DNA of 64,000 nucleotides from contig JBEKIG010000001.1 of assembly GCA_050011875.1 (NCBI GenBank), positions 70,167-134,166 on the forward strand, read 5' to 3'. This DNA is from Nitrososphaeria archaeon (GTDB taxonomy: Archaea > Thermoproteota > Nitrososphaeria > JACIWG01). Under the pieces are notes generated by a model. The model saw nothing but the letters and a program-made list of their open reading frames with translations, was not told the origin of the DNA and searched no databases. Each line of letters begins with the position of its first letter. Positions within the stretch are counted from its first letter, which is position 1. Shown one piece after another: positions 5,031 to 26,780 of the stretch. A program made the position numbers and the translations under genes.

Positions 5031-5093
5031 TGAATTCCACTGGAGAATAAATAGAAACGCGAACAACTTCCAATTTCTGAAAACCTTTAATAA

Positions 5094-9250: not shown

Positions 9251-10321
9251 TTACGACCTACCTTTTATTTTTTGAGAGGTTTCCGTAATTATTCCCAACG
9301 CCTTGTAGATGTCTTCTCTTTCTATTCCCCTATGGGTAACCATCCTAATGTCCTTGTCGCTAACCGACAGCGACAAAACACCTTGAGCCTTTAAAGCTGA
9401 GGTGAATTTGCTTGAAGATACACCCAAACTGCTTACATCAAATTTAACCATGTTGGTCTGCACAGCTTTCATGTTAACTGATAAGCCTTCGATCTTTGCT
9501 AACCCTTCAGCTAACAATCGGGCGTTTCTATGGTCGTCTTCAAGTCTGCTGATCATCTTTTCTAACGCAATTATACCGGGGGCGGCAACGATTCCAGCTT
9601 GGCGCATGCCTCCTCCAAGAACCTTCCTGACCTTCCTTGCCCTATCAATAAAGTCTTGGCTTCCAACAACAATTGAGCCGATAGGACAGCTTAAACCTTT
9701 CGAAAGACAGAACATCATGTTATCGACGTACTTCGTAAAGTTCTTCACGTCGACTTTTAGCGCCACTGAGGCATTGAATATTCGGGCGCCGTCCATGTAA
9801 AGTTTTAGACTGTGAGACCTTACGACTTCACTTATAGATTTTATCTGTTCGGGTGTTGCAATTGTTCCACCTGCCCTGTTGTGAGTGTTTTCGATTTCGA
9901 CCAAGGTCGTTTCCGGAAAGTGAATATCCTTAGGCCTTATCGCTGCTTCAACGTCTTTTGGATCGAGAACCCCCAAATTACCTTTGATCGTGTAGGGCAC
10001 AAGGCCACCGATTGCGCATAGACCTCCTACTTCATAATAAAAAACATGTGCTTCAGCCTCCAATATTACCCCGTCACCTCTTTTGGTGTTACTTATCATC
10101 GAGACCAGGTTGGCTTGAGTTCCACTTGTCACCAGCAAAGAGGCTTCCTTACCCATTTTCTCAGCAGCCATTTCCTCAAGTTTTTTTACAGTGGGATCTT
10201 CCCTAAAGACGTCGTCGCCGAGCTTAGCGTGCCTAATGGCTTCAAGCATTTCATCAGTTGGTAGGGTTACCGTATCACTTCTTAGATCAATGATTTCTTT
10301 CACCATCTTAGCACCACCCAT
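9251..10321 (-). CDS. Low-specificity L-threonine aldolase (PLP-dependent)
   Basis: N-terminus IDLRSDTVTLPTDEMLEAI...GDDVFREDPT is characteristic of threonine aldolase (fold-type I PLP). Length is 356 aa. Confidence 0.8.
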   Translation of the reverse strand: MGGAKMVKEIIDLRSDTVTLPTDEMLEAIRHAKLGDDVFREDPTVKKLEEMAAEKMGKEASLLVTSGTQANLVSMISNTKRGDGVILEAEAHVFYYEVGGLCAIGGLVPYTIKGNLGVLDPKDVEAAIRPKDIHFPETTLVEIENTHNRAGGTIATPEQIKSISEVVRSHSLKLYMDGARIFNASVALKVDVKNFTKYVDNMMFCLSKGLSCPIGSIVVGSQDFIDRARKVRKVLGGGMRQAGIVAAPGIIALEKMISRLEDDHRNARLLAEGLAKIEGLSVNMKAVQTNMVKFDVSSLGVSSSKFTSALKAQGVLSLSVSDKDIRMVTHRGIEREDIYKALGIITETSQKIKGRS

Positions 10322-10374
10322 TAACTAAAAAAGGCCTCACATAAATCATTATTGCTGAATTAAACCGTTATTGG

Positions 10375-10884
10375 TTAAACTTTGATAGGAAGCTCTTTGC
10401 AAGAGTCTAAGATTATCTTACTCGCTGTAAGCATCCATAAAACCTCCTCTTTGGAAACAGGTAGATCTGCAATGGATCTTAACCTAATGGAGTTCATATG
10501 CTCTACAGATTCATAAAAGGATAAACGGATACCTTTTGAAATTATCACAAAGGACATGTCCACTATATTAAAATCTTGAGGGAATTGGATATTCAAATAG
10601 TTCAAAATCTTTGCTAGAACATCTTTTACAGATGAATAGCTGTGTGAAATAGAACTCTTGTAGTCCATAATTTCGTATTCACTCTTGGCCTGATTGTAGG
10701 ACATCGTAGCTTCATTTATATCGATCGTAACAAAATATTCCATCCCTGAAGACACAGTTGGTGGGGCTGGAGGAGCAGATTTTGACATCTTCTTAACGGC
10801 TCCATATGTTAAAGCTACAGCCAACATTACGCCAAACGTTACGGTACTCCATTGAAAGATCACCATATAGTCTATCTGAGACAC
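10375..10884 (-). CDS. Hypothetical membrane-anchored protein
   Basis: An N-terminal hydrophobic anchor and Pro-rich linker (SAPPAPPTV) are followed by a ~110-aa domain. I recognise no motifs. Confidence 0.4.
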   Translation of the reverse strand: MSQIDYMVIFQWSTVTFGVMLAVALTYGAVKKMSKSAPPAPPTVSSGMEYFVTIDINEATMSYNQAKSEYEIMDYKSSISHSYSSVKDVLAKILNYLNIQFPQDFNIVDMSFVIISKGIRLSFYESVEHMNSIRLRSIADLPVSKEEVLWMLTASKIILDSCKELPIKV

Positions 10885-11106
10885 TTATCAGTCAACGTAC
10901 AACTTAACATGTTGCTAAAAAACTTTTATACCCTGTATATGTAAAACATAAATGGCGTCGATGAAGAATCAGAGTTATTGAAAACATTAATGATCTTAAG
11001 GCATTTGTCCGAGACGCCGCCTTCAATAGTAACTGTCGAAAAATGATGAGTTACTTTTATTAGCGTATCCAAAGCATGGAAGAAGGCTTTAAACCAAACA
11101 ATATTT

Positions 11107-11982
11107 TTAGATTTTCGCAGATACTATATCCCAGAGCGTTTTGATGTCATTTAAACATTGTTCCAAAGAATCTTGCGGTGTCTCTATTATTATAGGGAGG
11201 TCCCTGATCTCCTTGACTGATAAGAATGATTTGAATCCTTCTAACCCAATTTTACCCGCCCCTATATGCTCATGCCTATCAAGGTGATCATTAAGATCGC
11301 CTTTAGAATCGTTTGAGTGGATCATCTTCAGTCTATCTAATCCTATAACGTCTTCAAAATCTTTAATGAAAGAATCGACCTTTTGTGCAGAACGAATGTC
11401 ATATCCTGCCGCGAAACCGTGGCATGTATCGTAACATATGCCAATTCGCTTTTGATCTTCCACGAGGCTTAGACAGCGTTCCAACTGTTCAAACGTGTAC
11501 CCAACGCTGTTTTTCTGGCCTGCTGTGTTTTCAAGTAATAACATTGAGTTGCCTTCTGATTCTTTAATAGCTCTGTTGCACGCGCTAGTTACACGCTCTA
11601 TTCCCTCCTCTTCTGATGTTCCCATATGGCTGCCTAAATGAGTGACAAGGTAGGGGATTCTGAGACAGTGACATTTTTGAAGCTCTTCAGCTAAGATGCT
11701 AACCGATCTTTCATAGTTGTTTGCATCTGGTGAAGCTATATTTGGAAGATAGGGCATGTGTGCGATGGGAAAAAGTTCCGTCCGCTTAAGTTCTGAGATA
11801 AAATCGTTAAAGTCTTTTTTCTCCAACTTTTTAGCCTTCCATCCTCTTGGGTTCCTTGTAAACATCTGGAAGGCGGTACAGTTGATTGACCTAGCCCTTT
11901 CGAATGCATTGCACAACGCACCTTGAATGGAGACGTGAGCACCTATCAGAGGCATTTTATCAAACGACTGAGATATATTCAA
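11107..11982 (-). CDS. nfo: Endonuclease IV (AP endonuclease, xylose-isomerase-like TIM barrel)
   Basis: The HLGSHMG, LLENTAGQ and CYDTCHGFAAGYD motifs are present. The true start is likely the internal MPLIGAHVS. Confidence 0.85.
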   Translation of the reverse strand: MNISQSFDKMPLIGAHVSIQGALCNAFERARSINCTAFQMFTRNPRGWKAKKLEKKDFNDFISELKRTELFPIAHMPYLPNIASPDANNYERSVSILAEELQKCHCLRIPYLVTHLGSHMGTSEEEGIERVTSACNRAIKESEGNSMLLLENTAGQKNSVGYTFEQLERCLSLVEDQKRIGICYDTCHGFAAGYDIRSAQKVDSFIKDFEDVIGLDRLKMIHSNDSKGDLNDHLDRHEHIGAGKIGLEGFKSFLSVKEIRDLPIIIETPQDSLEQCLNDIKTLWDIVSAKI

Positions 11983-12010
11983 AAATATATAGGTTTCGCA
12001 ATAGAAAAAA

Positions 12011-13258
12011 TTATGGAAAGTTGCCTGAAAGTTTCATCGCTTCAACAACTCTGTTAATGCTCAGGATGAGCGCGGCTGTTCTCATATCGACGTCTTTTGA
12101 TGATGCAATGTTGTGGACATCAAGGAAGGCTTCGTGCATCTTCTTTTCTAGACGTTTGTTAACCTCGTCCTCTGTCCAATAAAAGCGAGAAATGTTTTGC
12201 ACCCATTCAAAGTAGCTCACTAGTACGCCTCCACCGTTTGCCAAGATGTCGGGTACAACGAGAACATCCCTGTCAAATAGGATCCTGTCCGCTTCCGGTG
12301 TAGTCGGACCATTCGCACCTTCCACGATTATCTTTGCCTGAACCTTGCCTGCGTTTCCCTTATGTATTTGACCCTCAAGCGCTGATGGAATTAAGATATC
12401 ACATGAGATTTCTAAGAGTTCTTCATTTGAGATACTTTTAGAGCCCGGATAGCCTACTACTGAACCCGTCTTTTCCTTATACTTTAAAACGTCCGACGGA
12501 TCCAAGCCTTTTTCACAATATATACCACCCCTCGAATCGCTTACAGCTACGATCTTAGAACCGTACTCTTTAGCTATGATCGCAGCATTTGCACCGACGT
12601 TACCAAATCCTTGGACAGCAATTCCTCTTCCAGCCAAACTTTTTCTAGTCATCTTAGCAGCTTCTTTAGCGATGACCACTGCGCCTCGTGAGGTGGAAGT
12701 TGAACGCCCCAACGAACCCCCTAAGGAGATTGGTTTACCTGTTACAACTGCTGGAACTTGATAGCCTACCATATGACTGTAGGTGTCCATTATCCAAGCC
12801 ATAGTCTGAGAGTCCGTGTAGACATCTGGTGCAGGGATATCTACATAAGGACCAATAACAGGAGATATCATCATGGTGTACTTCCTAGTCAGTCTCTCAA
12901 GTTCGTCTTTTGACATTTCTTTAGGGTTGCAGGTTACACCCCCCTTTGCACCACCGTACGGAATGTTCAATACAGAGGTCTTCCACGTCATCCACATGGA
13001 TAGGGCGCGAACTTCGTTAACGTCTACGGCAGGATGATATCTAATACCGCCTTTGAACGGCCCACGCGCGTCGTTATGTTGGATGCGATAGCCTGTAAAA
13101 ACCTTTACCTGCCCATTATCCATTTTGACTGGGAAACTCACTTGTAATTCTCTCTTGGGTTTACTTAGCACATCTATGGTAGCTTGGTCAAGGTCGATGT
13201 ACTTCGCGGCATTCCTCAGCTGTTCTTTTGCAATATCGTACGCGTTCAAAAACTTCAC
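12011..13258 (-). CDS. gdhA: Glutamate dehydrogenase (Glu/Leu/Phe/Val dehydrogenase family)
   Basis: Catalytic lysine motif KGGIRYHP...PYGGAKGGV is present. A C-terminal Rossmann GFGNVG motif is present. Length is 415 aa. Confidence 0.9.
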   Translation of the reverse strand: MKFLNAYDIAKEQLRNAAKYIDLDQATIDVLSKPKRELQVSFPVKMDNGQVKVFTGYRIQHNDARGPFKGGIRYHPAVDVNEVRALSMWMTWKTSVLNIPYGGAKGGVTCNPKEMSKDELERLTRKYTMMISPVIGPYVDIPAPDVYTDSQTMAWIMDTYSHMVGYQVPAVVTGKPISLGGSLGRSTSTSRGAVVIAKEAAKMTRKSLAGRGIAVQGFGNVGANAAIIAKEYGSKIVAVSDSRGGIYCEKGLDPSDVLKYKEKTGSVVGYPGSKSISNEELLEISCDILIPSALEGQIHKGNAGKVQAKIIVEGANGPTTPEADRILFDRDVLVVPDILANGGGVLVSYFEWVQNISRFYWTEDEVNKRLEKKMHEAFLDVHNIASSKDVDMRTAALILSINRVVEAMKLSGNFP

Positions 13259-13324
13259 TACGATGAATTTGAAAATGAGCGGTTATAAGTGTTTCTCGCA
13301 GGAAGTTTTCTCCTTGTTTATACG

Positions 13325-13984
13325 CTATAGTTTACCTATTAGGGGAATGATGTCGGTTAAGCTGGATACAATGTGGTCAGGTCCTTCATTTCTAAGCTTT
13401 TCTATTGATGTGAATCCGCCTAATACGACAATAGTCTTTACCCCAACAATCTTAGATGGCGTAATATCTATGATCCCATCACCTACTGTTACGCATTCCC
13501 AAGGTTTCAGCTTAAAAGAATCTAATAGGTAGCGCACACCAACTGGAGAAGGTTTCATGAATTCTACATCATCACGAGTTAAGATGATGTCGAAAAAGTC
13601 GGTGATCTGAAATCTTTTTAAAACAAAATTCGCAGCCCTTCTACCGCTGTTAGTTAAAAGTGCCAACTTTTTACCGGAATTTCGAAGCTCGCTTAATATG
13701 TCAATGGCATCAAGTCTTAGTTCAGTTTTACGCGCTGCCTCTTCTTCAAAAGAATTAAGAACACTATAAACGCGCTCTCGAACCTTTTCGTAAACAACCT
13801 TCTCAGCGGATTCTCTTACCCTATCTAACATCATATGGTAGCTTCCCGAGCCGTCTAAGCCCCCCAGGTCAGGTAGAACTGATTTGATCACCTTTAGCAC
13901 TTCGATTTTCGAGCCATGGACATCTAAATTAAATTCGACTAGTGTCCCATCTAAATCAAAAAAGACGGCTTTAATCATCATCAC
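13325..13984 (-). CDS. HAD-superfamily hydrolase
   Basis: N-terminal FFDLDGTL motif I and a C-terminal GDGxxD-like VGDGIIDI motif. Length is 219 aa. Confidence 0.75.
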   Translation of the reverse strand: MMMIKAVFFDLDGTLVEFNLDVHGSKIEVLKVIKSVLPDLGGLDGSGSYHMMLDRVRESAEKVVYEKVRERVYSVLNSFEEEAARKTELRLDAIDILSELRNSGKKLALLTNSGRRAANFVLKRFQITDFFDIILTRDDVEFMKPSPVGVRYLLDSFKLKPWECVTVGDGIIDITPSKIVGVKTIVVLGGFTSIEKLRNEGPDHIVSSLTDIIPLIGKL

Positions 13985-14131
13985 ACATCAGAAGGAAAGA
14001 CTTAAGAATTTTTAAAAAAAATAATGGTAGCCTATTTCTATTCTATATCTATTTAAACACAAGGGTGATTAAAACACTTAACTTAAGAAGATTTATATAA
14101 AGAAATTTGGTTAAAGGCATAAGATGAAAAC

Positions 14132-15568
14132 ATGAGCGGAAAGGTGGATAGCTTAAAATACAAACCCGTTACGCCAAACATTTTATCTAAACTGGAGGAA
14201 ATAGTCGGCTCAGAGAATCTCTCTATAAGACCTGAAGAGCTGATCTGTTATGCGCGGGATTCGTCAATATTTGTTTACAAACCTGATGTCGTATTGAGAC
14301 CTAGGACTACAGAGGAGGTGGCCGCTATCTTGATGGTCGCCAATGAAAACCACATACCGGTGACACCTAGAAGTGGTGGGACGAGCGCCGCCGGATCGCC
14401 TCTAGCTGTTGGTAAGGGAATCCTTCTCGACATGTCAGGTATGACCAAGATTATTTCGATCAATATCGATAACCAGATGGTTGTAGTTGAACCCGGAGTC
14501 TTATGTGACAACCTGAACGAAGAACTTGCAAAGTCCGGTTTCTTCTTTCCTCCTGACCCGGCTAGCAGCCAAGCCTGCTCAATAGGAGGAATGGTCAACA
14601 CAAATGCTTCAGGAAATAGGACAATAAAATATGGCCCGACTAGAGACTATGTCCTCTGGCTCGAAGTTGTTCTTCCTAATGGTAAAATAATTGAGACAGG
14701 TTCAAAAACACTCAAATCCGTATCGTCTTATGATTTAACCAGACTATTTGTTGCCTCCGAAGGCTCCTTAGGCGTCGTCACTAAGGTTGCCTTGAAAGTT
14801 GTTCCTCTACCGGAAAGCTACTCTACAGCATTCTTCATTTACGAATCAGTTGACGCCTTAGCGCGCGCAGCCCTGAGAATTAGGAGAGCGGGCATGGTTC
14901 CGGAAATGCTTGAATTTATGAGCAGGGCGACGACAAAAGTCACCTTCAACTACGTAGGCATAAAGAGCGTGCCAGACGGAAACTTTATGCTGCTGGACTT
15001 TGGAGGTGTTCGGGAAGCTGTAGGAGTGCTGTTAGAGAAGGGGGTGACGCTCTGCAGACAAGAGTCTCCTACCTATTTTGAAACAACAGTAGATCCAGTC
15101 TACAGACAGAGTCTTGTGAACGCTAGGAAGGCGGCCTTCCCTGCACTCGCTAGACTTAAGCCCACTACGGTTATGGAGGACTGTACCGTCCCCCCTACGA
15201 GGCTTCCGGAGGTGGCTTCAAGCATCGAAAAGATACCGGAAAAGATAGGTGTCGCTGGATTTGATTTAGGCAATTTCGGTCATATAGGAGACGGTAACAT
15301 GCATCCAACATTTCTATTTGACTCAAGAATAGAGGAGCACCGAAAAGCTTTTCTTCGCGCCTTAGACATACTCTACGAGGAAATAGTTTTACCTGTAGGT
15401 GGAAGTGTAACAGGGGAGCATGGGATAGGCCTTATAAGGGCCAAATATGTTGGCATCGAACATCCATCAACCGTGTCCCTAATGAGAGAATTGAAACGGT
15501 TCTTTGACCCAAATCTTATACTTAATCCGGGAAAGGGGAAGGGAGGCCCCTACCCTATAGATGCATGA
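14132..15568 (+). CDS. FAD-linked oxidase (GlcD / D-lactate dehydrogenase-like)
   Basis: FAD-binding PCMH-type N-terminal domain and 478-aa length. The layout matches glycolate oxidase GlcD / D-LDH proteins. Confidence 0.8.
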   Translation: MSGKVDSLKYKPVTPNILSKLEEIVGSENLSIRPEELICYARDSSIFVYKPDVVLRPRTTEEVAAILMVANENHIPVTPRSGGTSAAGSPLAVGKGILLDMSGMTKIISINIDNQMVVVEPGVLCDNLNEELAKSGFFFPPDPASSQACSIGGMVNTNASGNRTIKYGPTRDYVLWLEVVLPNGKIIETGSKTLKSVSSYDLTRLFVASEGSLGVVTKVALKVVPLPESYSTAFFIYESVDALARAALRIRRAGMVPEMLEFMSRATTKVTFNYVGIKSVPDGNFMLLDFGGVREAVGVLLEKGVTLCRQESPTYFETTVDPVYRQSLVNARKAAFPALARLKPTTVMEDCTVPPTRLPEVASSIEKIPEKIGVAGFDLGNFGHIGDGNMHPTFLFDSRIEEHRKAFLRALDILYEEIVLPVGGSVTGEHGIGLIRAKYVGIEHPSTVSLMRELKRFFDPNLILNPGKGKGGPYPIDA

Positions 15569-15580
15569 GATGATGACTAA

Positions 15581-16741
15581 ATGAACGAAAAACCGTATGT
15601 TCTGGAGGACTATCGCGAAGACGTCCAAATGTGCATGTGCTGCGGCTTGTGCCGGAACCTGTGTTCAACTTCTGACCCGAATGACTGGGAAAGCAACAGT
15701 CCTAGAGGAAGAATCCAGATTATAAAAGCCCTATTAGACGGGGAAATCCAGGCAAATTCATATATCGCCGACCGAATCTATGGCTGTGCGCTTTGTGGAT
15801 ACTGTCTTTGGCGATGCCCTTCAGGTGTGAGAACAGCAGATGCTATAAAGGCGGCCAGGGCGGCTCTTATTGAAAACGGAAGTTACCCGAAAGGTTTGGA
15901 TAAGTTAGAAGCTGACCTAGTTAAAGACCATAACCCCTTTGGCCTATCAGATCTTTCAAGAACGGAATGGGTCAAGCTTATAGGCGCCCGGAATTCGGTC
16001 CCACTGAAAGACCAGGCGGAATATGTCTACTTTCCAGGCTGTAGTACAGCAATGACAAAAGCAGGGATGAAGGTAGCGGCAGCGACAACGTCAATATTGA
16101 ATTCAGCGCATCTTGACTGGACGATCCTTGGAAATGAAGAATGGTGCTGTGGAAGCCCCTTGATTCTTTCTGGTAAAGTTTCTTTTGCCAGAGAATTTGC
16201 AGATCATAATGTGAAAGCAGTTAAAAATGCGAAGGCAACAACGCTGGTTACAAACTGCGCGAAATGCTATCGTACGCTAAGCCAAGAATATCCAAGACTT
16301 TTAGGGGACTTAGGGTTCAAGGTCGTCCACATCTCACAACTCTTGGACAACCTCATCGCTGATGGAAGTCTAAAGCTCAAGGGAAAACTCCAATTAAAGG
16401 TAGCTTACCATGATCCCTGTGAACTGGGAAGATACATGAAAATTTATGACCAACCGAGGCGCGTATTGAAGGCGATAGATGGTATAGAACTAAAAGAATT
16501 TCCAAGAAATAGAAATACATCCGCATGCTGTGGAGGCGGAGGCGTTCTAAGATATACTAACACCGAAATTGCCCTGAAATTGGGGATCAAAAGATTAAGC
16601 GAAATTATGAATTCGGGAGTTGAAGCAATTGTTTCAGCCTGTCCCACATGCGAAATCAACCTCTCCGATGCAGCAGCTAAAGCACGACCTGGACTTAGGG
16701 TACTTGACATAACAGAAGTTGTAGCAGATGTTCTAGATTAA
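15581..16741 (+). CDS. Fe-S oxidoreductase with two CCG domains (GlcF / HdrD-like partner of the FAD oxidase)
   Basis: Two CxxCxxCxxxCP ferredoxin motifs (CCGLCRNLCS, CALCGYCLWRCP). Cys-rich CCG-type repeats (CCGSP, CCGGGG). It lies 12 nt downstream of the GlcD-like gene. Confidence 0.75.
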   Translation: MNEKPYVLEDYREDVQMCMCCGLCRNLCSTSDPNDWESNSPRGRIQIIKALLDGEIQANSYIADRIYGCALCGYCLWRCPSGVRTADAIKAARAALIENGSYPKGLDKLEADLVKDHNPFGLSDLSRTEWVKLIGARNSVPLKDQAEYVYFPGCSTAMTKAGMKVAAATTSILNSAHLDWTILGNEEWCCGSPLILSGKVSFAREFADHNVKAVKNAKATTLVTNCAKCYRTLSQEYPRLLGDLGFKVVHISQLLDNLIADGSLKLKGKLQLKVAYHDPCELGRYMKIYDQPRRVLKAIDGIELKEFPRNRNTSACCGGGGVLRYTNTEIALKLGIKRLSEIMNSGVEAIVSACPTCEINLSDAAAKARPGLRVLDITEVVADVLD

Positions 16742-16877
16742 AGTGAATATGGAACTAACATAACGCAAATCTCTTACACCTTACGTCATTTTACACGCCA
16801 ATTGCCAACACAAAGTCTTTGGTACTTTTGAGTCTAGATGGTCCGTTTAGTGATCAACTTTAAAAAGTAGATGGCCG

Positions 16878-17555
16878 TCAATTCTTTTCTAAGGTATCCC
16901 CATCTTCAACTGATACTTTAAGAAATTCGTCCAGTCTCCCATCTGCTTCGCTGATAAAGGACTTTAGCATGTCGCATGAGACAATAGGAACACCGTTAAA
17001 GTACTTCTGGTTGGAGGGAAATAGTGTTACGATAACCGGAACTAGCACTGTTCCCTTCTTCAAATTTTTATCGCAAGACAGAATAATCTTTGCCCTTGCT
17101 ATTTGCTTAATCACAGCAGAATTCAGATTAGATGCGCTGAGAATTTTGTGCCACTGTTTGCAGTCAATAAGTAGCCCATATGAATTTCTTAATGCAAGAA
17201 TATCGACCTCAATTCTTGGTCTCTTAAGCCTATAGTTCTTAAAAGTCTTATACCCAAACTCGGAAAAAATCATTTCGACGAAGTTCTCAAAATCCTGCCA
17301 TCTAATAATGTTGAATACCTCATTGAAAGACGCGCCTCCCTTTATCGCCTGAATAGCCAAGGAGATAATCGCTCCCTCCTTAGCCACAAAATTCTCCTTA
17401 CGATCTTCTAAGAAGCCTTGTTCAATAAGTATACCCATTACTTCAGACACTGTCTGGTATGGCACACCAGTCTCCTTCGAAATATCGTCTATTGAAAAAG
17501 ATTCTTTTCTCAAATAAGGTAGTATCTTCAGAAGAGTCTTGGAATTCATGCACAA
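16878..17555 (-). CDS. Winged-HTH fused to Mrr_cat-type (PD-(D/E)xK) restriction-endonuclease-like domain
   Basis: N-terminal wHTH (ISKETGVPYQTVSEVMGILIEQGFL). The C-terminus WQDFENFVEMIFSEFGYKT...RIEVDILALRN..GLLIDCKQW matches the Mrr catalytic core pattern (FE..v....GY...D.D...QCK). Confidence 0.6.
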   Translation of the reverse strand: MCMNSKTLLKILPYLRKESFSIDDISKETGVPYQTVSEVMGILIEQGFLEDRKENFVAKEGAIISLAIQAIKGGASFNEVFNIIRWQDFENFVEMIFSEFGYKTFKNYRLKRPRIEVDILALRNSYGLLIDCKQWHKILSASNLNSAVIKQIARAKIILSCDKNLKKGTVLVPVIVTLFPSNQKYFNGVPIVSCDMLKSFISEADGRLDEFLKVSVEDGDTLEKN

Positions 17556-17663
17556 GCAAGTAACTTCCGTTCTGTTTTAATATATTCCTTTAGTTTTTGA
17601 AACTTGCACCCACTTCCTTACTATTATAGTGTTAGCCTTCACATCATCACCATCAAAGAATAT

Positions 17664-18029
17664 TCATAATTCTAAATACTTTGAAAGAAAATAATTAAAA
17701 AAACCGTCCATTTTATGAGGCTTCAGGTTAAATTTTCTCCTCATCATAGAATTGGAGGCATATCTAGCTCCACAGCTTATAGCTATTATTTGATTTTTAG
17801 TTAGCTCGTCAAACAATTTCCTTTTTAGGACTCCCTTTTCCCTGTCAAGTTCAAATCGCTTGTTATTTAGTGTATTTAATTCATCTTCCAGGGATACCTC
17901 ATCATTCCTTTCCTTATCTAAGATGTTTTTGAGATATCCAACTGTTAATTTTTCATATGTAATACCTAGTTTTCGCGATTTTTCTAATATATAAGGAGGA
18001 ATAGCCAAATCTTTAGACTCGCTTTCCAA
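17664..18029 (-). CDS. Hypothetical small protein (121 aa)
   Basis: Compact ORF 5 nt downstream of the 95-aa ORF on the same strand. It is charged and helical, with no recognisable motif. Confidence 0.35.
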   Translation of the reverse strand: MESESKDLAIPPYILEKSRKLGITYEKLTVGYLKNILDKERNDEVSLEDELNTLNNKRFELDREKGVLKRKLFDELTKNQIIAISCGARYASNSMMRRKFNLKPHKMDGFFNYFLSKYLEL

Positions 18030-18034
18030 TTACC

Positions 18035-18322
18035 TTATCTTCCTCCCTGATCAGACTCTATCATCTCTTCTTCAGTAGCCAGTTCATTTAGGATGTCTAT
18101 GACCTTTTGGCGATCTTCAAGCGTCATCGTTATTTTATGCCTGAGCTCATCTATCTCCTTTAATTCAGATGTTATATCCCTTTTATTAAATGAGTTTATT
18201 CGCTTAACTAGGCTCTCTTTAAGCGTCCTTATATCCTCGAGTTGATTAAGTAACTGATTTATTTCATACCATTTACTACCAGAAGTCAAGGCTTCTGATC
18301 GCCCGCGGCATATAGTAAGCAC
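18035..18322 (-). CDS. Hypothetical coiled-coil protein (95 aa)
   Basis: Heptad-like charged sequence. Its 5' end overlaps the OppF-like gene by 37 nt, which suggests co-transcription with the transporter operon. Confidence 0.35.
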   Translation of the reverse strand: MLTICRGRSEALTSGSKWYEINQLLNQLEDIRTLKESLVKRINSFNKRDITSELKEIDELRHKITMTLEDRQKVIDILNELATEEEMIESDQGGR

Positions 18323-19569
18323 GAAACCAGCCTTCCATCATGCTTATACATTTTAGGTACCTGATATTGCTTGATCTTTAGCTCCGCACCGTTTTCGTAT
18401 TTCTCCACCCTGTCGATCGCCATCAAGCTCTTCATTCTTCCCTTTTCAAGATTTATAATCTCTACTAATTTTTTTTCATCCGCTTTACTTACTATCAAGC
18501 TGTTGTTTGTGCTGATGGATACGACGGTCTCATCGCTGAATTTATCTGCGTATTTATCATAAACTAAAAATATCATATCGACCATTATCTCATCAGTTGT
18601 CCATCCGCATATATCAAAGGCCATCGGACACCGAGGATGAAAGACACAACCAGATGGGGGGTCAACTAGGTTAGGTGTATCTCCCTTTAATATTATTCTG
18701 TTTGATTTTATCATCTTGCCAGGAACAGCCGATATTAGCGCTATAGTATATGGATGAACTGGGTTCAATATGATGTCCCTCTTGGGGCCACTTTCTACTA
18801 TCTTTCCCGCATACATGACATTTACCTGATCTGACATATATGATATTACAGCTATATTATGGGTTATAATGAGCATCCCTATGTTGTACTTTTCCCTGAT
18901 CCCGCGCAGAAGGGTTAAAATCTGAGCTTGCACTGATACATCTAGGGCACTGCTGGGCTCATCCAGCACAATGAACTTCGGTAGAGTCGCTATCCCTCTC
19001 GCGATCGCTACCCTCTGCTTTTGACCACCTGAAAGTTCATGAGGATATCTATATGCAAAATCTTTAGGTAATCCCACTTCATCTAGCAACTGCATGCATC
19101 TATCAAACGCTGCGTCGGAATCCATATAGCCGGTGGCTTGAATTGGCTCCTTTATAACATCCAAGACGTTTAATCGTGGATCTAATGATGAATACGGGTC
19201 CTGAAATATGATATTCATATCCTTTCTCATCTCCCTTAGTTTCTTTCCCTTTTTCAGGAAAATTGAATAATCTTTTTCTATTGCTGCAGCTCGATCGAGT
19301 TCTCCATTTTCGATGTAAAAATCGTACTTGGCGAGGACGTCATCGGATATATTAAATAAGACCACACCATCAGTTGGTTCGAGCAATCTGAGGAGCAATC
19401 GTCCCAGCGTACTTTTACCTGAACCGCTTTCGCCCACCACTCCAACGATCTCGCCCTCCTTGACCTGTATATCGACACCATCTACCGCCTTAAGCCTGAG
19501 AGGTTTTCCGAAAACACTATTTCCCTTGATCTCAAAGTGCTTTACCAGCTTCCTAGCGGCTATTATCAT
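18286..19569 (-). CDS. ABC transporter ATP-binding protein (OppF/DppF-like) with C-terminal extension
   Basis: Walker A GESGSGKST, signature LSGGQKQRVAIA, and Walker B LDEPSSALD. Confidence 0.85.
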   Translation of the reverse strand: MIIAARKLVKHFEIKGNSVFGKPLRLKAVDGVDIQVKEGEIVGVVGESGSGKSTLGRLLLRLLEPTDGVVLFNISDDVLAKYDFYIENGELDRAAAIEKDYSIFLKKGKKLREMRKDMNIIFQDPYSSLDPRLNVLDVIKEPIQATGYMDSDAAFDRCMQLLDEVGLPKDFAYRYPHELSGGQKQRVAIARGIATLPKFIVLDEPSSALDVSVQAQILTLLRGIREKYNIGMLIITHNIAVISYMSDQVNVMYAGKIVESGPKRDIILNPVHPYTIALISAVPGKMIKSNRIILKGDTPNLVDPPSGCVFHPRCPMAFDICGWTTDEIMVDMIFLVYDKYADKFSDETVVSISTNNSLIVSKADEKKLVEIINLEKGRMKSLMAIDRVEKYENGAELKIKQYQVPKMYKHDGRLVSCLLYAAGDQKP

Positions 19570-19571
19570 TT

Positions 19572-20924
19572 TTAATCGCCATAAAGATAACAGGCTACTG
19601 AATGATCCTGTTCGACTTCCCCCAGATGTGGGTTTACTATTTTACACTTTTCCATTACGTAAGGACACCGGGGGTTAAACATACACCCATCCGGCGGATC
19701 TCTCATATCTGGAACTGCGCCGCTTATGCCCTTTATTTCGGTCGTTTGAAAAGTTGGCACGGCAGATATTAGCATAGTGGTATATGGATGAAGCGGTTTC
19801 TTGAATATCATGTCAGTTTCCGCCACCTCAACTATCCTACCTCCATACATTATGGCTATCCTATCGCACACCTCAGAGAGTACAGAGAGATCGTGTGATA
19901 TTAGGATGAAGGATGTGTTGAACCGCTGCTTCAAGTGTCTCATTAATTCTAAAATCTGAGCCTGTACGGTGACATCTAGGGCACTGGTTGGCTCGTCCAT
20001 TATGACCAGCTCCGGGTTGTTTGCAAGCGCGATAGCTATTATTATCCTCTGTCTCATCCCACCCGATAGCTCATGGGGGTACATTTTCACAACTTCCTCA
20101 GGGTTGGGAACCTCCAACGTTGAAATGAGTTCCACCGCTTTCCTGTATCCCTCTTTGAACAGGATTGACTTTGGCAGCCTGCTCAAACCTGGTATCTTCA
20201 TCCAACCACCCATGCCCCTTCGATCCTTTACTCCGTTTAGGATAGCCCTTTCAAAACTACCAAGCTTAGTGGATCGAAGTGAAACGATCATTTTTTCCTT
20301 CTTAGCTTCACCAAGGTCGCTTCTACTCCAAATATTCAGAACCTGTTCTTCTATCCCTTGTAACCCCTTGGACTCAGTGAAAACTCTGATCGCTTTCTCA
20401 TCTGCCCCATTCTTCAGTAGTTCAAGCATGTCCCTCAAATCGATATCCGTTACCCTTGATCTAGCGAGCTTCCGTTTAGCGAGCATCTCTGGCTGATGGG
20501 TTACAAGTGTCTCAGATATTTGAAAACCTATCCGTAGGACAGGGTTGAGGCTTGTCATTGGATCTTGGAAGACCATGGAAATCATGCTACCGCGTATGCT
20601 GGCCAGTTGTTGGTTCAACTTTTTTATAATGTTTTCACTTTTTCTGAAATTGAATTTTTTAGAATTTCTTGAAGCGTATTCCCTCAATGGGGCTATTAAA
20701 TCGCGGCCATTAATCAAGACCTCTCCTTCAATGATGGCCGCGTTTCTGGGCACGAGCCCTATGATGGCCAAGCCCAAAGTTGTTTTACCACACCCGCTCT
20801 CTCCAGCTAGACCTAATATCTCCCCTTTCTTTAGTTGGAGGTCTACGCCGTTAAGGGCTTTATATATCCCTCTTCTAGTATAGAATTGCTCTTTAATATT
20901 TAGAACGTTTAATGTATATTCCAA
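19572..20924 (-). CDS. ABC transporter ATP-binding protein (OppD/DppD-like) with large internal insertion
   Basis: Walker A GESGCGKTT, signature LSGGMRQR, and Walker B MDEPTSALD. The two motifs are separated by ~250 aa, unusually far. Confidence 0.85.
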   Translation of the reverse strand: MEYTLNVLNIKEQFYTRRGIYKALNGVDLQLKKGEILGLAGESGCGKTTLGLAIIGLVPRNAAIIEGEVLINGRDLIAPLREYASRNSKKFNFRKSENIIKKLNQQLASIRGSMISMVFQDPMTSLNPVLRIGFQISETLVTHQPEMLAKRKLARSRVTDIDLRDMLELLKNGADEKAIRVFTESKGLQGIEEQVLNIWSRSDLGEAKKEKMIVSLRSTKLGSFERAILNGVKDRRGMGGWMKIPGLSRLPKSILFKEGYRKAVELISTLEVPNPEEVVKMYPHELSGGMRQRIIIAIALANNPELVIMDEPTSALDVTVQAQILELMRHLKQRFNTSFILISHDLSVLSEVCDRIAIMYGGRIVEVAETDMIFKKPLHPYTTMLISAVPTFQTTEIKGISGAVPDMRDPPDGCMFNPRCPYVMEKCKIVNPHLGEVEQDHSVACYLYGD

Positions 20925-20925
20925 A

Positions 20926-21828
20926 TCAGCTCCTCCTCCTCGGGTCTATTACGTCCCTCAACCCATCGCCTAATAGGTTAACGGCCAACGCAAAAATAGT
21001 AATAACGACCCCTGGAAAGATGACGGCCCAAGGAGCAATCTGAACGTAGTTGAGACCCAGACTAGTCAGGTAACCCAGTTCAGGCACACTTGCATTTGTT
21101 ATAAATCCTATGAATGCGAGTGTGGAGAAGATCACCATTATGGCTCCCAAGTCCAATGAGATTTGTATAAAAACTGGCGGCAACGAGTTCGGCAATATAT
21201 GTCTGAATATTATCTTGATCCTGCTAACTCCAGATGCCCTTGCAGCTTCAACAAATGTGAATTCCTTGGTAGACAGAGTTGTGCTCCTCGTGTATCTCGC
21301 ATATATAGGCCACCAGACCAGGGCAAGCGTTAGTGACATATTCATTAAGGTTCTTCCCAAAATAAACCCTATAGCGAGGGCTAGTATGAGATATGGAATA
21401 CTGAAGAATATATCGGTTATCCTCATTACTATTTCATCCATCATACCGCCTATCGCAGCTGAAATAACTCCAATTACTGAACCCACTACAGCGCCCACGC
21501 CCACTACTAAGAAGGAATAGAAAAGATCTATCCTTATAGCCTTTAACGTGCTCGTATATAAATCCACGCCAGGGTACGTGGTGCCAAATGGATGCTGCCA
21601 TGAAGGTGCAGTAGGAACCGGGTTCAAGAAGTTGGGGACTAGAGTGTTGGCGTAAGTTATACCTAGCAGCCCTGGATCAATCTGCATAATAAAAGCATCA
21701 GCCAGATATACAAGCACTATGATAAGGCCCACCACCGCTGCCGTGTTGGCAAAAAATACGCTGAACGACAGTTTGATATTATCCCACCTCCGCGTGTTAA
21801 CCGTTCCCCCAGACGTTTTCTTTGACAT
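20926..21828 (-). CDS. ABC transporter permease (OppC/DppC-like)
   Basis: Polytopic membrane protein carrying the BPD-transporter EAA-like loop. It is in operon position between the permease and ATPase genes. Confidence 0.8.
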   Translation of the reverse strand: MSKKTSGGTVNTRRWDNIKLSFSVFFANTAAVVGLIIVLVYLADAFIMQIDPGLLGITYANTLVPNFLNPVPTAPSWQHPFGTTYPGVDLYTSTLKAIRIDLFYSFLVVGVGAVVGSVIGVISAAIGGMMDEIVMRITDIFFSIPYLILALAIGFILGRTLMNMSLTLALVWWPIYARYTRSTTLSTKEFTFVEAARASGVSRIKIIFRHILPNSLPPVFIQISLDLGAIMVIFSTLAFIGFITNASVPELGYLTSLGLNYVQIAPWAVIFPGVVITIFALAVNLLGDGLRDVIDPRRRS

Positions 21829-21831
21829 TTT

Positions 21832-22887
21832 TTAATATCTAATCCTCGGATCTATAAAAGCGTATATAACGTCGACAACCAAGTTAGCTGCCACTAATAT
21901 TAAACCGAAAAGTAAAGTAGATGCCATTATCCCGCCCACATCGCTGTTTAGAAACGCCTGAGTAGTCCAATATCCAATTCCAGGATAACTGAATATTGTT
22001 TCCACTACAACAGCACCTCCAAGGAGCCCAGCCACTGTTAGCCCAAAGAGAGTTATCATCGGTAGAAGGGCGTTCTTTTGAGCATGAATGTTATTTACAG
22101 TTCTCTCTGGTAGACCCTTTGACCTCGCCAGTCTTATATAGTCTTGATCAAGCACCTCCAGCATAGAGGACCTAAGTATCCTGATTATACTGGCTACTAT
22201 AGCCAGCGCAAGTGTAAGTGCGGGAAGGATAAAGTGAAGGAACGCATCAAAAGCGACTCCCCACGCGCCATGAATTAAGGCGTCTATTAAAATTACGTGA
22301 GTAGGATAAGAAATTCCGTTTATATACCATGAAAAAGAAGAAACCAGTGTGGGGGATACAACGCCTGAGAATGGCAGTACCTTAAAATAAACTCCCAACA
22401 CAATTATGAGGGCAATACCTATCAAATAGATGGGCATTGCGTAAAGAGTAAATGAACCAACCCGCAGTATGTGATCAGCGGCTGAATCCCTGCTAACTGC
22501 TGAATAAATCCCTAAAGGGACGCCTATTATCCATATTAATATCGCTGCAGCTACGGTTAGCACCACCGTATTAGGAAGAAAGAGCTCTATCGCAGCAGTT
22601 ACTTGGCCGCTGAAGACTGGGGTGTTTGTAAACCCCCAATTACCCTCCAATACTTGCAAAAGCCAGTAAAAATACTGAACGTATATAGGCTGATTAAGAT
22701 GGAACTCCGCTGTAAGCTTCTGGACAAGCAGCTGCCTTGCTGTTCCCGTCAACCTAGGATTGAGATATGTAGCTAGTAATATATTATTCCCACTAAAATG
22801 CGAAAGGATAAAAACCAAAAGGGTTAAGCCTAAAAGCGTCGGTATAAGGAGCAACAATCTCCTGATGATGTAGGCCCATATGTTCAT
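21832..22887 (-). CDS. ABC transporter permease (OppB/DppB-like)
   Basis: Polytopic membrane protein of 351 aa, tightly stacked with flanking opp genes. Confidence 0.8.
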   Translation of the reverse strand: MNIWAYIIRRLLLLIPTLLGLTLLVFILSHFSGNNILLATYLNPRLTGTARQLLVQKLTAEFHLNQPIYVQYFYWLLQVLEGNWGFTNTPVFSGQVTAAIELFLPNTVVLTVAAAILIWIIGVPLGIYSAVSRDSAADHILRVGSFTLYAMPIYLIGIALIIVLGVYFKVLPFSGVVSPTLVSSFSWYINGISYPTHVILIDALIHGAWGVAFDAFLHFILPALTLALAIVASIIRILRSSMLEVLDQDYIRLARSKGLPERTVNNIHAQKNALLPMITLFGLTVAGLLGGAVVVETIFSYPGIGYWTTQAFLNSDVGGIMASTLLFGLILVAANLVVDVIYAFIDPRIRY

Positions 22888-22927
22888 AATTAATCATCCC
22901 TAAAAAAATGGAAGTGTTGGTGGTGTA

Positions 22928-25534
22928 TTAACCTTTTACCCACCAATAGTAAAGCGAATCAGCTCCTCCGCCGATCATAACATTCTCTTGATATTGTATG
23001 TTTTTGTTATAGCCCGTCATGTATGGTTTTAACATCCAGAATGTGTTGGTCTGTTCTGTATATACATACAAGTAGAGGTTTATTGCTATCTGCTCACACT
23101 GTTTATAATCCTGCGCAGCCAAGGTACTATTTGTAGTCGAATCAGCCTGTATAATTAGGTTGTTCATTTCATGGTACTGAGCGGCCTCCGCTGGATAGCC
23201 TGAAGAGTTGATAAAACTTGTAGTCCACCCAAGGCCTGAAGGATAGGCACCTCCCTGTTCGTACATTGCATTGACGTAGTCGCTTGGATAAGGATAGTCA
23301 GGCAACCAACCCAAGTTGTAAATTGGCATTGGATTCGCACCTGGCGCCAGTTCTCCTATGATGGTAGTGAAGGCTTGGTACTCAGGCACAGCGTTTATGT
23401 TGGGGTCCATTTGGTGAAGTGCTGCAGCCCACATTTGGAAAGCGGCGTAATCCACTATATCGCCCGAAGCTACTATAATGGGTAGTGTTACAGATGTATT
23501 ATACTCACCTGACTCCTGCATCAATTGAGTGGCATAGGTAAGGTTGTAGGTAGGAATTCCTGTGAGCTGGCTCGGTGGCACATAGTCAGCCATTCCATTG
23601 GGTATAACCCCTGCATAGGAACTTCCAAAGTTAGCTCCATATACCGAATTCCCCAGAATCTCGTCTAGAAAATTGGTTTCATTCCAGGAATAGCAGAATG
23701 CTTCCCTGACTAAAGTATTAGCGAAGTAACCGGATGGAATGTTGAAGTTGGAACCGAACACCGATTTCATTAGTGTGGTAGAAGTATTGAAGTTGAATGG
23801 ATTGAAGAATATATCTAGTGTTGGAAACGAATACAGCGAAGTCTGCCCCTTTGCTACCTGTTGTTTGACTAATGGCATATAACTGCTAGGTAGACCAGTC
23901 ACTATGTCAGCCTGTCCACTTGTGAATAGATCGTAGGCAGTTGTAGGATCCTTGACCCATTGAATCGATACAGTATCGTTAGGTGTTGGTATACTTGGTA
24001 CGCTTTGGAATCCTTTGTTAGGTGTCAACACAACTGATTGGCCGGGTACGTAGCTCTCTATTTGGTAAGGACCGGAGGCCACTGTGCTGAATTGAACCTT
24101 TAGGTTATAATCCCCTTCATTACCTTGACTTTGATAAGCGTAGAAGCCTGCGGGTGTAAATGTTATCCCAGCTCCAACGTTCTGTAACCAAGCGGAATCC
24201 AGTACTCCTGCTCCCATCGGAAATGCCAAAGCCGTAAAGAATAAACCTGGCGCTGTTGACACAGCAAGGTGGAATGTAACCGTATCCGTCACATTGTTAT
24301 ACGACACTCCATTCATTATAGCATTAAAGTCCGCAGTATCATTAGCAGCATTCATTATAGGTACAAAGGGAACCAAGTTCGGTATGAGATATTGTGATAG
24401 TATCCAGTCGGCAGTGCCTGGTGCCCCTCCTTGGAATAACATGCACCTAATAGCTGTATACCATACATCGTAAGCGGTTATAGGATCTCCATTAGAGAAT
24501 TTCATGCCGCTCCTTATGGTGAACGTATATGAAGTATAGTTGGCGTTTATTCCTCCATTCTGAACCGTTGGGACTGACGCTGCCAGCATGGGCAGGAACT
24601 GGGATGGAGATGATCCATTATAAACTATAAGCGTCCCCGCTATATTATATATAACCTCAGCCCCCACCGACTCATAATCCACCTGTGGATCGAACGAATA
24701 TGGGCCTCCGGGAATGTTTTCAACTGTGTTTATAATTGAAGGATTGGGGACATTTCCGCTGTATTTATAGAGAATATACGGTTGAGTTGAGGAACTCACA
24801 GCTACCGTTTGCTCAACGGTCAGGCTATACTTCTGGAGGCTGCTTGCGTTTTCCGTGATCAAGGTCAAACTGACTGGATATAGACCTGGATTAGCGTAAG
24901 ACACGCTCACTGGGTTTGTAACTGGAAGAAATGTTGAACTATCAGCTAAGACGTCTTGAGTTTTTCCGTTGCCAAAGTTCCATACATATTCATATATGCT
25001 CATGTTGTTGCCCGTCGGTGGTAAATGGTAACCTCCTGTTAGAACTACAGGTGTGTTAACATTGACTACGGGTTCCGTAGGATTAACGGTCGAATTAAGT
25101 ACGATAACTGGAATTGATACTAACGGTGCTAAAGTAGAGTTAACTACAGGAGTAACCTGTATTAACGTTGTCACGTTATCTGTAGAAGCTACTACTTTAC
25201 CGTTGTAAGTTTCTTGTGCTGCGACCAGATATGCACCTGAATTAGCATAAGCATGGGTAATACTAGCGGCTTTAGCCGATTGGCCATCTCCGAAGGATAT
25301 GTTAAGAGAACCACCAGATACTGCTCCGTACACTGAAAATGTTATACCTACCCCTTGTTCACCTGTTAAACTAGTAGTCGCAAGAGAAATTGCGGTTATA
25401 GTAGGTCCATGTGATGTAGACAGATAGAAACCTGCTACAATAGCTATTATCAATATCACTATAATTATTGCTACGATTGCTGATTTCGCGATTGCTTTCC
25501 TCGCACGTTTGTCGAAGAACATGTTCATCATCAT
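22928..25534 (-). CDS. Extracellular solute-binding protein, family 5 (OppA-like), with N-terminal membrane anchor and PKD-like domain
   Basis: N-terminal TM segment, then a PKD-like segment (FGDGQSA...HAYANSGAY). The long SBP_bac_5-like body is rich in N-x-S/T sequons. It is the first gene of the opp operon. Confidence 0.75.
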   Translation of the reverse strand: MMMNMFFDKRARKAIAKSAIVAIIIVILIIAIVAGFYLSTSHGPTITAISLATTSLTGEQGVGITFSVYGAVSGGSLNISFGDGQSAKAASITHAYANSGAYLVAAQETYNGKVVASTDNVTTLIQVTPVVNSTLAPLVSIPVIVLNSTVNPTEPVVNVNTPVVLTGGYHLPPTGNNMSIYEYVWNFGNGKTQDVLADSSTFLPVTNPVSVSYANPGLYPVSLTLITENASSLQKYSLTVEQTVAVSSSTQPYILYKYSGNVPNPSIINTVENIPGGPYSFDPQVDYESVGAEVIYNIAGTLIVYNGSSPSQFLPMLAASVPTVQNGGINANYTSYTFTIRSGMKFSNGDPITAYDVWYTAIRCMLFQGGAPGTADWILSQYLIPNLVPFVPIMNAANDTADFNAIMNGVSYNNVTDTVTFHLAVSTAPGLFFTALAFPMGAGVLDSAWLQNVGAGITFTPAGFYAYQSQGNEGDYNLKVQFSTVASGPYQIESYVPGQSVVLTPNKGFQSVPSIPTPNDTVSIQWVKDPTTAYDLFTSGQADIVTGLPSSYMPLVKQQVAKGQTSLYSFPTLDIFFNPFNFNTSTTLMKSVFGSNFNIPSGYFANTLVREAFCYSWNETNFLDEILGNSVYGANFGSSYAGVIPNGMADYVPPSQLTGIPTYNLTYATQLMQESGEYNTSVTLPIIVASGDIVDYAAFQMWAAALHQMDPNINAVPEYQAFTTIIGELAPGANPMPIYNLGWLPDYPYPSDYVNAMYEQGGAYPSGLGWTTSFINSSGYPAEAAQYHEMNNLIIQADSTTNSTLAAQDYKQCEQIAINLYLYVYTEQTNTFWMLKPYMTGYNKNIQYQENVMIGGGADSLYYWWVKG

Positions 25535-25757
25535 ATCTAATTATTACTATAAAACTCTTTCGCTGCATCATGTCGCTGAGACCAATTTTTATCTTTATGG
25601 AAATAATATTAAACATGCCACAGTTCTAAATAACATTTATTAGATTGACATTAAGAGGGACAAAGTATGTCTCAATCTTTTAAAAAGAGAGAGAATTTCT
25701 TTCCTTTTAGACTAATTTATCATTTTTGTTTTATGATTAAAGGCGCTAGATAAAATA

Positions 25758-26780
25758 GTGAATACCATTATGGTTAACCTTTTAAAATCACATTCTAATA
25801 AACTCATTATTTTGATCATAGTTATTTGTATAATATTCATTTTAGTTATAGTGCCATTTATTCCCGGCTCTGTAGAGAAGGTCTCTATAAGTACGGTTCA
25901 AGAAAAACTCTACCCTGTCTACACAAATAGTGGTTTCGAAGATGCGGTTGGAGAAAAAGTGAACGGCTGGAACCTTTTAAACGGTTCAAAGCTCAGCAGG
26001 ACAATTGTTTACGATGGGAACAATGCTATCAACATGACTCCTTCGAATCCCTCGATTATCCCTCAGATAATTTACGTAGGAAATAACGCGACGACAAGAT
26101 ACATTATTGGAGGCAACGTGATAGCATCCTTGGCTGTCAAGGCCTTAAACGCACTCAATGGCTCAAAACCATCTTACTTGAATGTTGAATCGGTAATCTT
26201 ATACATTGGACCAACAAACGTGACTACTTTCCTATTCAACCTCGTATTATACAGGAATATGCCGAACGTAAGCGAGGGTGTGGCGTACAAAAATTACGGT
26301 ATTATCGCATACAAAAATTTAGAGAATTCTGATGATTGGTTTGAATACTCCCTCCAGATGTCGCAGATGACCGGTGCCTTCTCTAACTACCTTAGCAGTT
26401 GGAAAGGTATAGACGCTAAACCAACCGATAGATACGAAATGCTGGGCCTAAGCGTTTGGTGCGATAATCTTGTAGCCTATGTCGACGACGCATCAATTTA
26501 CTTGATCGAACCGGAATGGATAATTGCCACAATGAAATCTAACTCCATTATACCGATGAACGTGTTCTTGTCTGACGTCGAAATAAACGGGAGCACACCT
26601 ACACAATTTTACACAAAGCCTAATCTTGTGACACCCTTTTCAACGTTCGACCTCTACACTTTTGTTCCATATACGCCTTCGAATGGTTCCGTAAACATTG
26701 TAACAGTTCGATTTGGAACAGGGCAAACAATTCAATTCCAGTTCAAAGAGGAGACTAGAAGAGTATGGGTAATTCTGTAA
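25758..26780 (+). CDS. Secreted/surface glycoprotein of unknown function (possible TasA/camelysin-like or pilin-like substrate)
   Basis: N-terminal signal/anchor (KLIILIIVICIIFILVIVPFIPG), a beta-rich body and more than 15 N-x-S/T sequons. Its stop overlaps the start of the signal peptidase gene by 16 nt. Confidence 0.45.
   Translation: MNTIMVNLLKSHSNKLIILIIVICIIFILVIVPFIPGSVEKVSISTVQEKLYPVYTNSGFEDAVGEKVNGWNLLNGSKLSRTIVYDGNNAINMTPSNPSIIPQIIYVGNNATTRYIIGGNVIASLAVKALNALNGSKPSYLNVESVILYIGPTNVTTFLFNLVLYRNMPNVSEGVAYKNYGIIAYKNLENSDDWFEYSLQMSQMTGAFSNYLSSWKGIDAKPTDRYEMLGLSVWCDNLVAYVDDASIYLIEPEWIIATMKSNSIIPMNVFLSDVEINGSTPTQFYTKPNLVTPFSTFDLYTFVPYTPSNGSVNIVTVRFGTGQTIQFQFKEETRRVWVIL

Follow-up and report, generated by a model that had tools for sequence, protein, structure and literature searches.

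The stretch of DNA considered here, hereafter the window, comprises 64,000 nt of a Nitrososphaeria archaeon (JACIWG01; assembly GCA_050011875.1, contig JBEKIG010000001.1, positions 70,167-134,166 of the forward strand). Next to an opp/dpp-type ABC transporter operon it carries three minus-strand open reading frames (ORFs), at 16878..17555, 17664..18029 and 18035..18322. We propose, with a probability of roughly 0.6 for this reading as a whole, that these ORFs belong to two unrelated units: a solitary backbone gene for a nuclease with a winged helix-turn-helix (wHTH), and two orphan ORFs, termed ORF121 and ORF95, which are part of a swapped opp cassette. The nuclease gene is unremarkable within its family, a large and as yet uncharacterised archaeal group of DNA-binding Mrr-type nucleases. 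Its features, with residues of the protein numbered throughout in a form of 223 amino acids (aa), are the following:

16878..17549, minus strand: gene for the 223-aa protein with a wHTH and a PD-(D/E)xK (Mrr_cat/NERD-like) domain, from Pfam, homologues and predicted structure
17376..17549, minus strand: N-terminal wHTH, about residues 1-58, from Pfam TrmB and the AlphaFold 2 (AF2) model
16926..17306, minus strand: PD-(D/E)xK nuclease core, about residues 82-208
17286-17288, 17202-17204, 17163-17165 and 17157-17159, minus strand: catalytic codons E88, D116, D129 and K131, respectively
17556..17608, minus strand: backbone part of the conserved region upstream of the nuclease gene, from blastn homology to the related locus L013

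The nuclease ORF can be read from a TTG at 17555, which gives 225 aa, or from an ATG at codon 3 (17549), which gives 223 aa; the public 223-aa call agrees with the ATG, and the 100% identical record P0001 bears the NCBI name 'winged helix-turn-helix domain-containing protein [Nitrososphaeria archaeon]', while an exact look-up of P0023 returned no record. In Pfam, residues 15-55 match the TrmB-type wHTH with 25.2 bits against a cut-off of 25.6, and residues 84-155 match Mrr_cat (PF04471) with 19.3 bits (E 1.2e-3) against a gathering threshold of 21 bits. The AlphaFold model, with a predicted local distance difference test (pLDDT) score of 91.6, consists of two domains, the wHTH (helices 3-14, 20-27 and 31-43, strands 47-50 and 53-56) and an alpha-beta-beta-beta-alpha-beta core. 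In structure comparison the model resembles PD-(D/E)xK nucleases; it has the core fold of the PD-(D/E)xK restriction-endonuclease-like superfamily, and the catalytic E...D...(D/E)xK residues of that superfamily are present and conserved. A first-pass annotation of this DNA had described the 225-aa protein as a winged helix joined to an Mrr-type PD-(D/E)xK core, and Pfam, the family matches and the AlphaFold model all bear this out, with the motifs that it quoted found in the protein; the archaeal origin of the DNA that its text implied is correct too.

A word-indexed search with the protein returned 21 clusters at 46-100% identity, whose source names are Nitrososphaeria metagenome-assembled genomes (MAGs) and, in one case, a genome labelled Micrarchaeia. 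An exhaustive profile search retrieved 842 family representatives with E<=1e-3, of which 651 reach E<=1e-10, each representative standing for a cluster at 50% identity. Most of the 150 matches listed are 200-245 aa long and cover almost the whole profile, and family names and record titles are almost all archaeal, with the taxonomy verified for a few members. In an alignment of 123 relatives with a mean column identity of 25%, E88, D116 and K131 are invariant, and D129, C130, W133, W84 and F87 are conserved in at least 90% of the sequences; among the 21 close homologues E88, D116, D129 and K131 are all invariant. The first-pass annotation had proposed that conservation of the catalytic residues be checked in orthologues, and the E/D/D/K residues are kept there and far beyond; its suggestion of a nuclease-dead DNA-binding regulator is disfavoured by this invariant tetrad.

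Matches to Mrr_cat at E<=0.01 were obtained for 110 of the 123 relatives (best 1.6e-9) and matches to NERD for 87, and precomputed PF04471 matches exist on several orthologues. The wHTH-Mrr_cat subfamily thus sits at the edge of the PF04471 model, outside strict Pfam membership. The wHTH, recognition helix included, is the least conserved part of the protein, with an alignment consensus that is mostly 'x', and its matches in the window protein and its relatives are of the TrmB, HTH_24, IclR, Rrf2 and ArsR types; Mrr_N (PF14338) matches neither the window protein nor appears in the 25 of 30 matched families listed for the 123 relatives. AF1548 (PDB 1y88) is the sole PDB relative detectable by sequence, and it was grouped together with Mrr_cat and COG1787 in a survey of the superfamily (Steczkiewicz et al., 2012; PMC3424549). 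The literature that we found offers this superfamily classification only (PMC3424549), and no characterised member of the wHTH-Mrr_cat architecture. As a separate observation, in locus L024 (6460-7402) the family is apparently split into a 92-aa ArsR-like HTH ORF and, about 220 nt away, a nuclease-only ORF of 147 aa, and upstream of these, at 4501-5615, lies an ORF which, judged by eye, resembles an IS110-type transposase.

Retention of the full tetrad at a mean identity of 25% makes it most likely that the protein is a catalytically competent, metal-dependent DNA endonuclease. The proposed mechanism is a 'mini-Mrr' architecture, in which the wHTH would dock the nuclease onto DNA and the conserved metal-binding and catalytic residues (E88, D116 and D129-x-K131) would support divalent-metal-dependent cleavage. 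The gene would be expressed from a promoter of its own and would need no partner encoded alongside. The sequences 5' of the gene are near-identical in the window and in L013 from about -60, and a TATA-like AATATATTAAAA at 17575-17586, 26-37 nt 5' of the nuclease ATG, is common to both, which suggests an archaeal promoter and a near-leaderless mRNA. An Rfam scan of 16600-18500 returned no match.

The inheritance of the gene was examined in fetched loci, of which L001-L026 and L031-L032 are related loci that differ from the window sequence, and L027-L030 are copies of it. In every locus of the window lineage an opp/dpp-type ABC operon directly precedes the nuclease gene on the same strand, and this placement directly 3' of opp recurs in 13 distinct genomes, although four non-orthologous operon types, in two gene orders, are found upstream. 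The genes that usually follow are those for a HAD hydrolase, glutamate dehydrogenase (GDH) and an AP endonuclease, and where they change (L005, L015) the adjacency to opp is kept. Across nine loci, the identity of the nuclease to the window protein parallels that of the HAD protein (r=0.985, or 0.94 without L013) and of GDH (r=0.96, or 0.88 without L013), and we therefore regard the gene as vertically co-inherited with the chromosomal backbone. From these comparisons it appears to be a stable, core-gene-like backbone gene of the Nitrososphaeria lineage. More distant members have other neighbours: in L019, L024 and L032 the genes for TATA-binding protein (TBP) and a phosphoribosyltransferase (PRTase) adjoin, and in L031 that for an M50 peptidase. 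In L023, a Nitrososphaerales homologue at 31% identity, an opp operon is divergent from the nuclease gene.

The boundary between this backbone and the transporter genes was located by comparison with L013, a GTDB MAG whose nuclease orthologue is 94% identical. In blastn, window and L013 align at 9876-17608 (95.3%) and again at 25624-26282 (93.3%), whereas the intervening 8.0 kb, 17609-25623, have no DNA-level counterpart in L013 except for a short ATPase match at 69%. The breakpoints thus fall at 17608/17609 and 25623/25624, the first of them 55 nt past the ORF121 stop, and all of the DNA between this point and the start of the nuclease gene belongs to the backbone. The features on the cassette side are:

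17609..25623, minus strand: replaced cassette of about 8.0 kb, encoding OppA (868 aa), OppB, OppC, OppD (450 aa), OppF (427 aa), ORF95 and ORF121, from blastn breakpoints against L013
18286..19569, minus strand: OppF-type ABC ATPase, 427 aa, final canonical gene of the swapped opp operon (Pfam ABC_tran 1.1e-27, oligo_HPY 3.2e-17)
18035..18322, minus strand: ORF95, hydrophilic helical orphan with a GTG start, overlapping the end of OppF; also called by public pipelines
17664..18029, minus strand: ORF121, orphan all-helical protein with a TTG start 5 nt past the ORF95 stop

In L013 the same slot holds a 6.3-kb standard opp operon, whose ATPases have 326 and 319 aa; a hydrophobic mini-ORF of 46 aa comes next and overlaps the stop of the ATPase gene. 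The OppF proteins of window and L013 are 42% identical, against 94-98% for the flanking genes. The L013-type operon with its mini-ORF is also found in L001, L005, L007, L009, L015 and L022, and since it is widespread in related loci the window arrangement is taken to be the derived one. Thus, the alignments indicate that an opp cassette of about 8 kb has, in this genome alone, taken the place of the ancestral opp operon with its membrane mini-ORF. The ATPases of the incoming operon (18286-20924) are unusually long, 427 and 450 aa compared with about 320-327 aa in relatives, with a C-terminal extension of about 100 aa past the oligo_HPY region in OppF and a large internal insertion in OppD. A pattern-based metagenome scan for relatives of the 427-aa OppF gave one match at 24% identity and no close relative, and a search for repeats and inverted repeats at the breakpoints gave short matches at chance level, with no mobile-element boundary.

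Several further observations concern the two operon types. The 868-aa substrate-binding protein of the cassette (22928-25534) has an N-terminal transmembrane (TM) segment and a weak PKD-like region before SBP_bac_5, and its identity to the binding proteins encoded in the ancestral-type operons is only about 25-28%. In the latter, the conserved mini-ORF encodes about 44-46 hydrophobic residues with a single TM-like segment ('MLAxxVKxDYKDFLA...PMIV..IL..L') and shares about 19 nt with the 3' end of the last opp ATPase gene (L013:6783-6923; L007:4475-4612; L009:6787-6921; L001, about 5778-5915; also L005, L015 and L022), while L011 and L012 have a different, 64-aa hydrophobic mini-ORF in the same slot. 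The GTG of ORF95 stands at the position homologous to the ATG of the ancestral mini-ORF. These mini-ORFs may contribute accessory peptides or small membrane subunits to the transporter.

The two ORFs at the end of the cassette are, as the first-pass annotation had it, upstream of the nuclease gene on the same strand, and ORF95, if read from its GTG, does overlap the final ABC ATPase gene by 37 nt. Translation could also begin at a TTG at 18289, which runs into the TGA stop of the ATPase gene (TTGA) and would shorten the product to 84 aa; this start appears in one public gene call, the 95-aa form in others. ORF95 may be translationally coupled to the opp genes. For neither ORF did Pfam, PADLOC, NCBIfam or PHROGs supply a credible family, with scores far under the cut-offs or weak and scattered, and the best PDB match was a designed repeat protein at E 0.027; the earlier statement that they have no recognisable family stands. 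Among 5.8 billion proteins no homologue of either was found beyond identical copies, matches at '99%' being an artefact of the translation of non-ATG start codons. Similarly, tblastn against 25 loci (L001-L025) gave no match, and the two ORFs resemble neither each other nor the rest of the window. The same arrangement is carried by L027-L030, whose DNA is 100% identical to the window over 4.3-10.3 kb.

Evidence that both are genes comes from hexamer statistics and structure prediction. A hexamer (dicodon) model was trained on 32 long window genes, and under it the short form of ORF95 (ORF84) scores 0.29 and ORF121 scores 0.20 in their own frames. Chunks of true genes score 0.256+/-0.092, wrong-frame chunks reach 0.124 at their 99th percentile, and none of 14 shadow ORFs exceeds 0.041. 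In their own frames the two ORFs outscore at least 99.6% of the wrong-frame chunks, and their remaining five frames are clearly negative. Of the 677 nt that separate the OppF stop from the breakpoint, the two ORFs take up 654, with GC contents of 0.36 and 0.32 compared with 0.425 in the training genes. AF2 predicts an all-helical ORF121 with helices at 12-21, 25-100 (a helix of about 75 residues) and 104-120, a pLDDT of 80.5 and a predicted template modelling (pTM) score of 0.38; an impression that its N-terminus forms a ribbon-helix-helix was unsupported and has been dropped. ORF95 and ORF121 are probably real, genome-specific orphan genes for helical proteins, presumably expressed from the opp transcript. 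They would form the 3' tail of the opp cassette, co-transcribed with the transporter genes, with no demonstrable link to the nuclease.

That both are instead open merely by chance, in non-coding AT-rich DNA where the cassette ends, is a rather unlikely explanation. It would fit the lack of homologues and family matches, the non-ATG starts and the GC content below that of the training genes, but not the hexamer scores, which lie in the range of true genes and above all 14 shadow ORFs, nor two back-to-back ORFs that nearly fill the available space, nor the helical structure predicted with a pLDDT of 80, nor the calling of both ORFs by public pipelines. Far less probable still, and the least probable of all the explanations considered, is that the nuclease and two small coiled-coil proteins make up a three-gene defence or toxin-antitoxin-like module placed on the opp operon. 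The three genes do share one strand and a tight spacing, and at the domain level PADLOC reports weak matches to the Mrr-like nuclease domain of ZorD (E 1.3e-4) and the wHTH domains of Csa3/CasR. Against such a module, however, the small ORFs are missing from every orthologous locus (L001-L026 and L031-L032), including L013 with its 94%-identical nuclease, a recombination breakpoint lies between them and the nuclease gene, the latter apparently has its own conserved promoter region, and the small ORFs have no homologues. The PADLOC models make no system-level call for the locus, which argues against an anti-phage defence system, and none of the loci examined shows a defence-island context.

The first-pass annotation had presented the three genes as partners appended to the opp operon, possibly with a role in defence. 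The co-occurrence check that it proposed has overturned the partnership, and a defence role finds no support in the PADLOC models or in the gene contexts. Of the appended genes, the two small ORFs do belong to the opp operon, whereas the nuclease gene is set apart by the 17608/17609 breakpoint. The alternative that the same annotation had named, a solitary Mrr-like gene plus spurious ORFs, is favoured in its first half only, as both small ORFs score as coding.

The explanation that we rank as the main rival concerns the nuclease protein itself, which might be a transcription factor for the adjacent opp/dpp operon, with its PD-(D/E)xK fold co-opted as a dimerisation or as a ligand- or metal-sensing module. 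We judge this to be unlikely. Its appeal lies in the direct adjacency to opp, which extends over 13 genomes despite the different operon types and gene orders, persists where the downstream genes change, and has a counterpart in the divergent opp operon of the Nitrososphaerales locus; in addition, TrmB is the top N-terminal Pfam match. A purely regulatory fold, however, would not be expected to keep the tetrad invariant at 25% identity, nor would the reader of a conserved operator be expected to have so poorly conserved a recognition helix. Distant members (L019, L024, L032 and L031) stand next to TBP and PRTase genes or an M50 peptidase gene and have no opp neighbours, the adjacency within the lineage is explicable by vertical synteny, and a search for a shared palindrome found none. 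A wider proposal, that the protein is tied to the peptide-transporter locus either as such an opp-controlling nuclease-fold transcription factor or as a site-directed nuclease that makes the locus a recombination hot spot, we consider a shade less likely again; if true, the hot-spot option would account for the presence, in exactly one slot upstream of the gene in related genomes, of four non-orthologous opp cassettes whose small trailing ORFs differ.

A TIP26-like function, in which the nuclease-fold protein would bind TBP and modulate the initiation of transcription, is highly improbable. It is brought to mind by a TBP gene within about 1 kb of family members in L019, L024 and L032, but these three loci also have the PRTase neighbour in common and may represent one inherited synteny. 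No TBP gene was found near the nuclease gene in the scanned loci of the lineage, in which TBP was not specifically searched for. Furthermore, the protein has no sequence similarity to 2czr, the structural match is limited to the generic PD-(D/E)xK domain, with several true nucleases ranking above it, and the catalytic residues of the window protein are intact. TIP26 is not known to be a nuclease.

Some points also weigh against the solitary backbone nuclease beside unrelated orphan genes. With no characterised family member, its activity, substrate and role are deduced from residue conservation and fold, and the window protein is marginally under the Pfam cut-offs for both TrmB and Mrr_cat. 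The persistent adjacency to opp despite four operon types, which we treat as synteny, could mean a functional link to peptide transport. As for the small ORFs, they come from a single genome whose four further contigs are 100% identical, which leaves no polymorphism for an evolutionary test of coding; neither starts with ATG, and a K/E-rich, AT-rich stretch could inflate the hexamer scores.

Among known systems, E. coli Mrr, a type IV modification-dependent restriction endonuclease composed of Mrr_N and Mrr_cat, likewise combines an N-terminal winged helix with an Mrr_cat-type PD-(D/E)xK domain and an E...D...(D/E/Q)xK site, and it is also a solitary gene with no adjacent methyltransferase. 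In contrast, the window protein is about 80 aa shorter, its wHTH is of the TrmB/ArsR/MarR types and not Mrr_N, its Mrr_cat score is below the Pfam cut-off, and its gene behaves as a vertically inherited core gene and not as a patchy defence gene. AF1548, an uncharacterised protein from Archaeoglobus, differs from the window family in that it lacks the N-terminal wHTH. The Can2/Card1/VC1899-type nucleases and Upx are fused to CARF or other sensor domains and take part in CRISPR or defence signaling, whereas the window protein has neither a CARF domain nor a defence context. TrmB regulators are encoded beside sugar ABC transporters, which are under their control. The window protein shares with them a TrmB-like wHTH and the ABC transporter operon alongside, but its wHTH match remains below the threshold and the C-terminal sugar-binding effector domain is absent; the C-terminal half is instead a nuclease domain with intact catalytic residues, which places the protein outside the TrmB family.

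The surroundings of the gene, made up of opp, GlcD/GlcF, HAD, GDH and AP endonuclease genes, vary in some further respects. Between the nuclease and HAD genes, at 14132-16741 on the plus strand, lies a pair encoding a GlcD-like FAD oxidase and a GlcF-like Fe-S/CCG protein, which is found in the window and in L013 (7809-10418) only and is absent from all other syntenic loci. In L005 and L006 (6826-7553), a toxin-antitoxin pair of HEPN and nucleotidyltransferase (MNT-type) genes lies directly 3' of the nuclease orthologue, restricted to that lineage and in place of the HAD-GDH block. In addition, the HAD orthologue of L013 (10566-11223) is recovered by tblastn as two overlapping segments in different frames, which suggests a frameshift, from either a pseudogene or an assembly error.

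For the solitary backbone nuclease, the candidate roles are modification-dependent (type IV-like) restriction and genome maintenance. The lack of a neighbouring methyltransferase fits a type IV-like or a repair-type enzyme, and the core-gene behaviour favours a housekeeping role over that of a mobile defence gene. In terms of annotation, the locus is to be corrected to a single Mrr-like nuclease gene, conserved and solitary, next to a transporter cassette that was replaced horizontally and contains two orphan genes. The cassette swap, together with the repeated occurrence of small ORFs coupled to the final ATPase gene of opp, provides a modest example of operon-level replacement in a fixed chromosomal slot. 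As the nuclease family spans hundreds of clusters at 50% identity, the assignment of a role to it would fill an annotation gap in many genomes, which are archaeal where identified.

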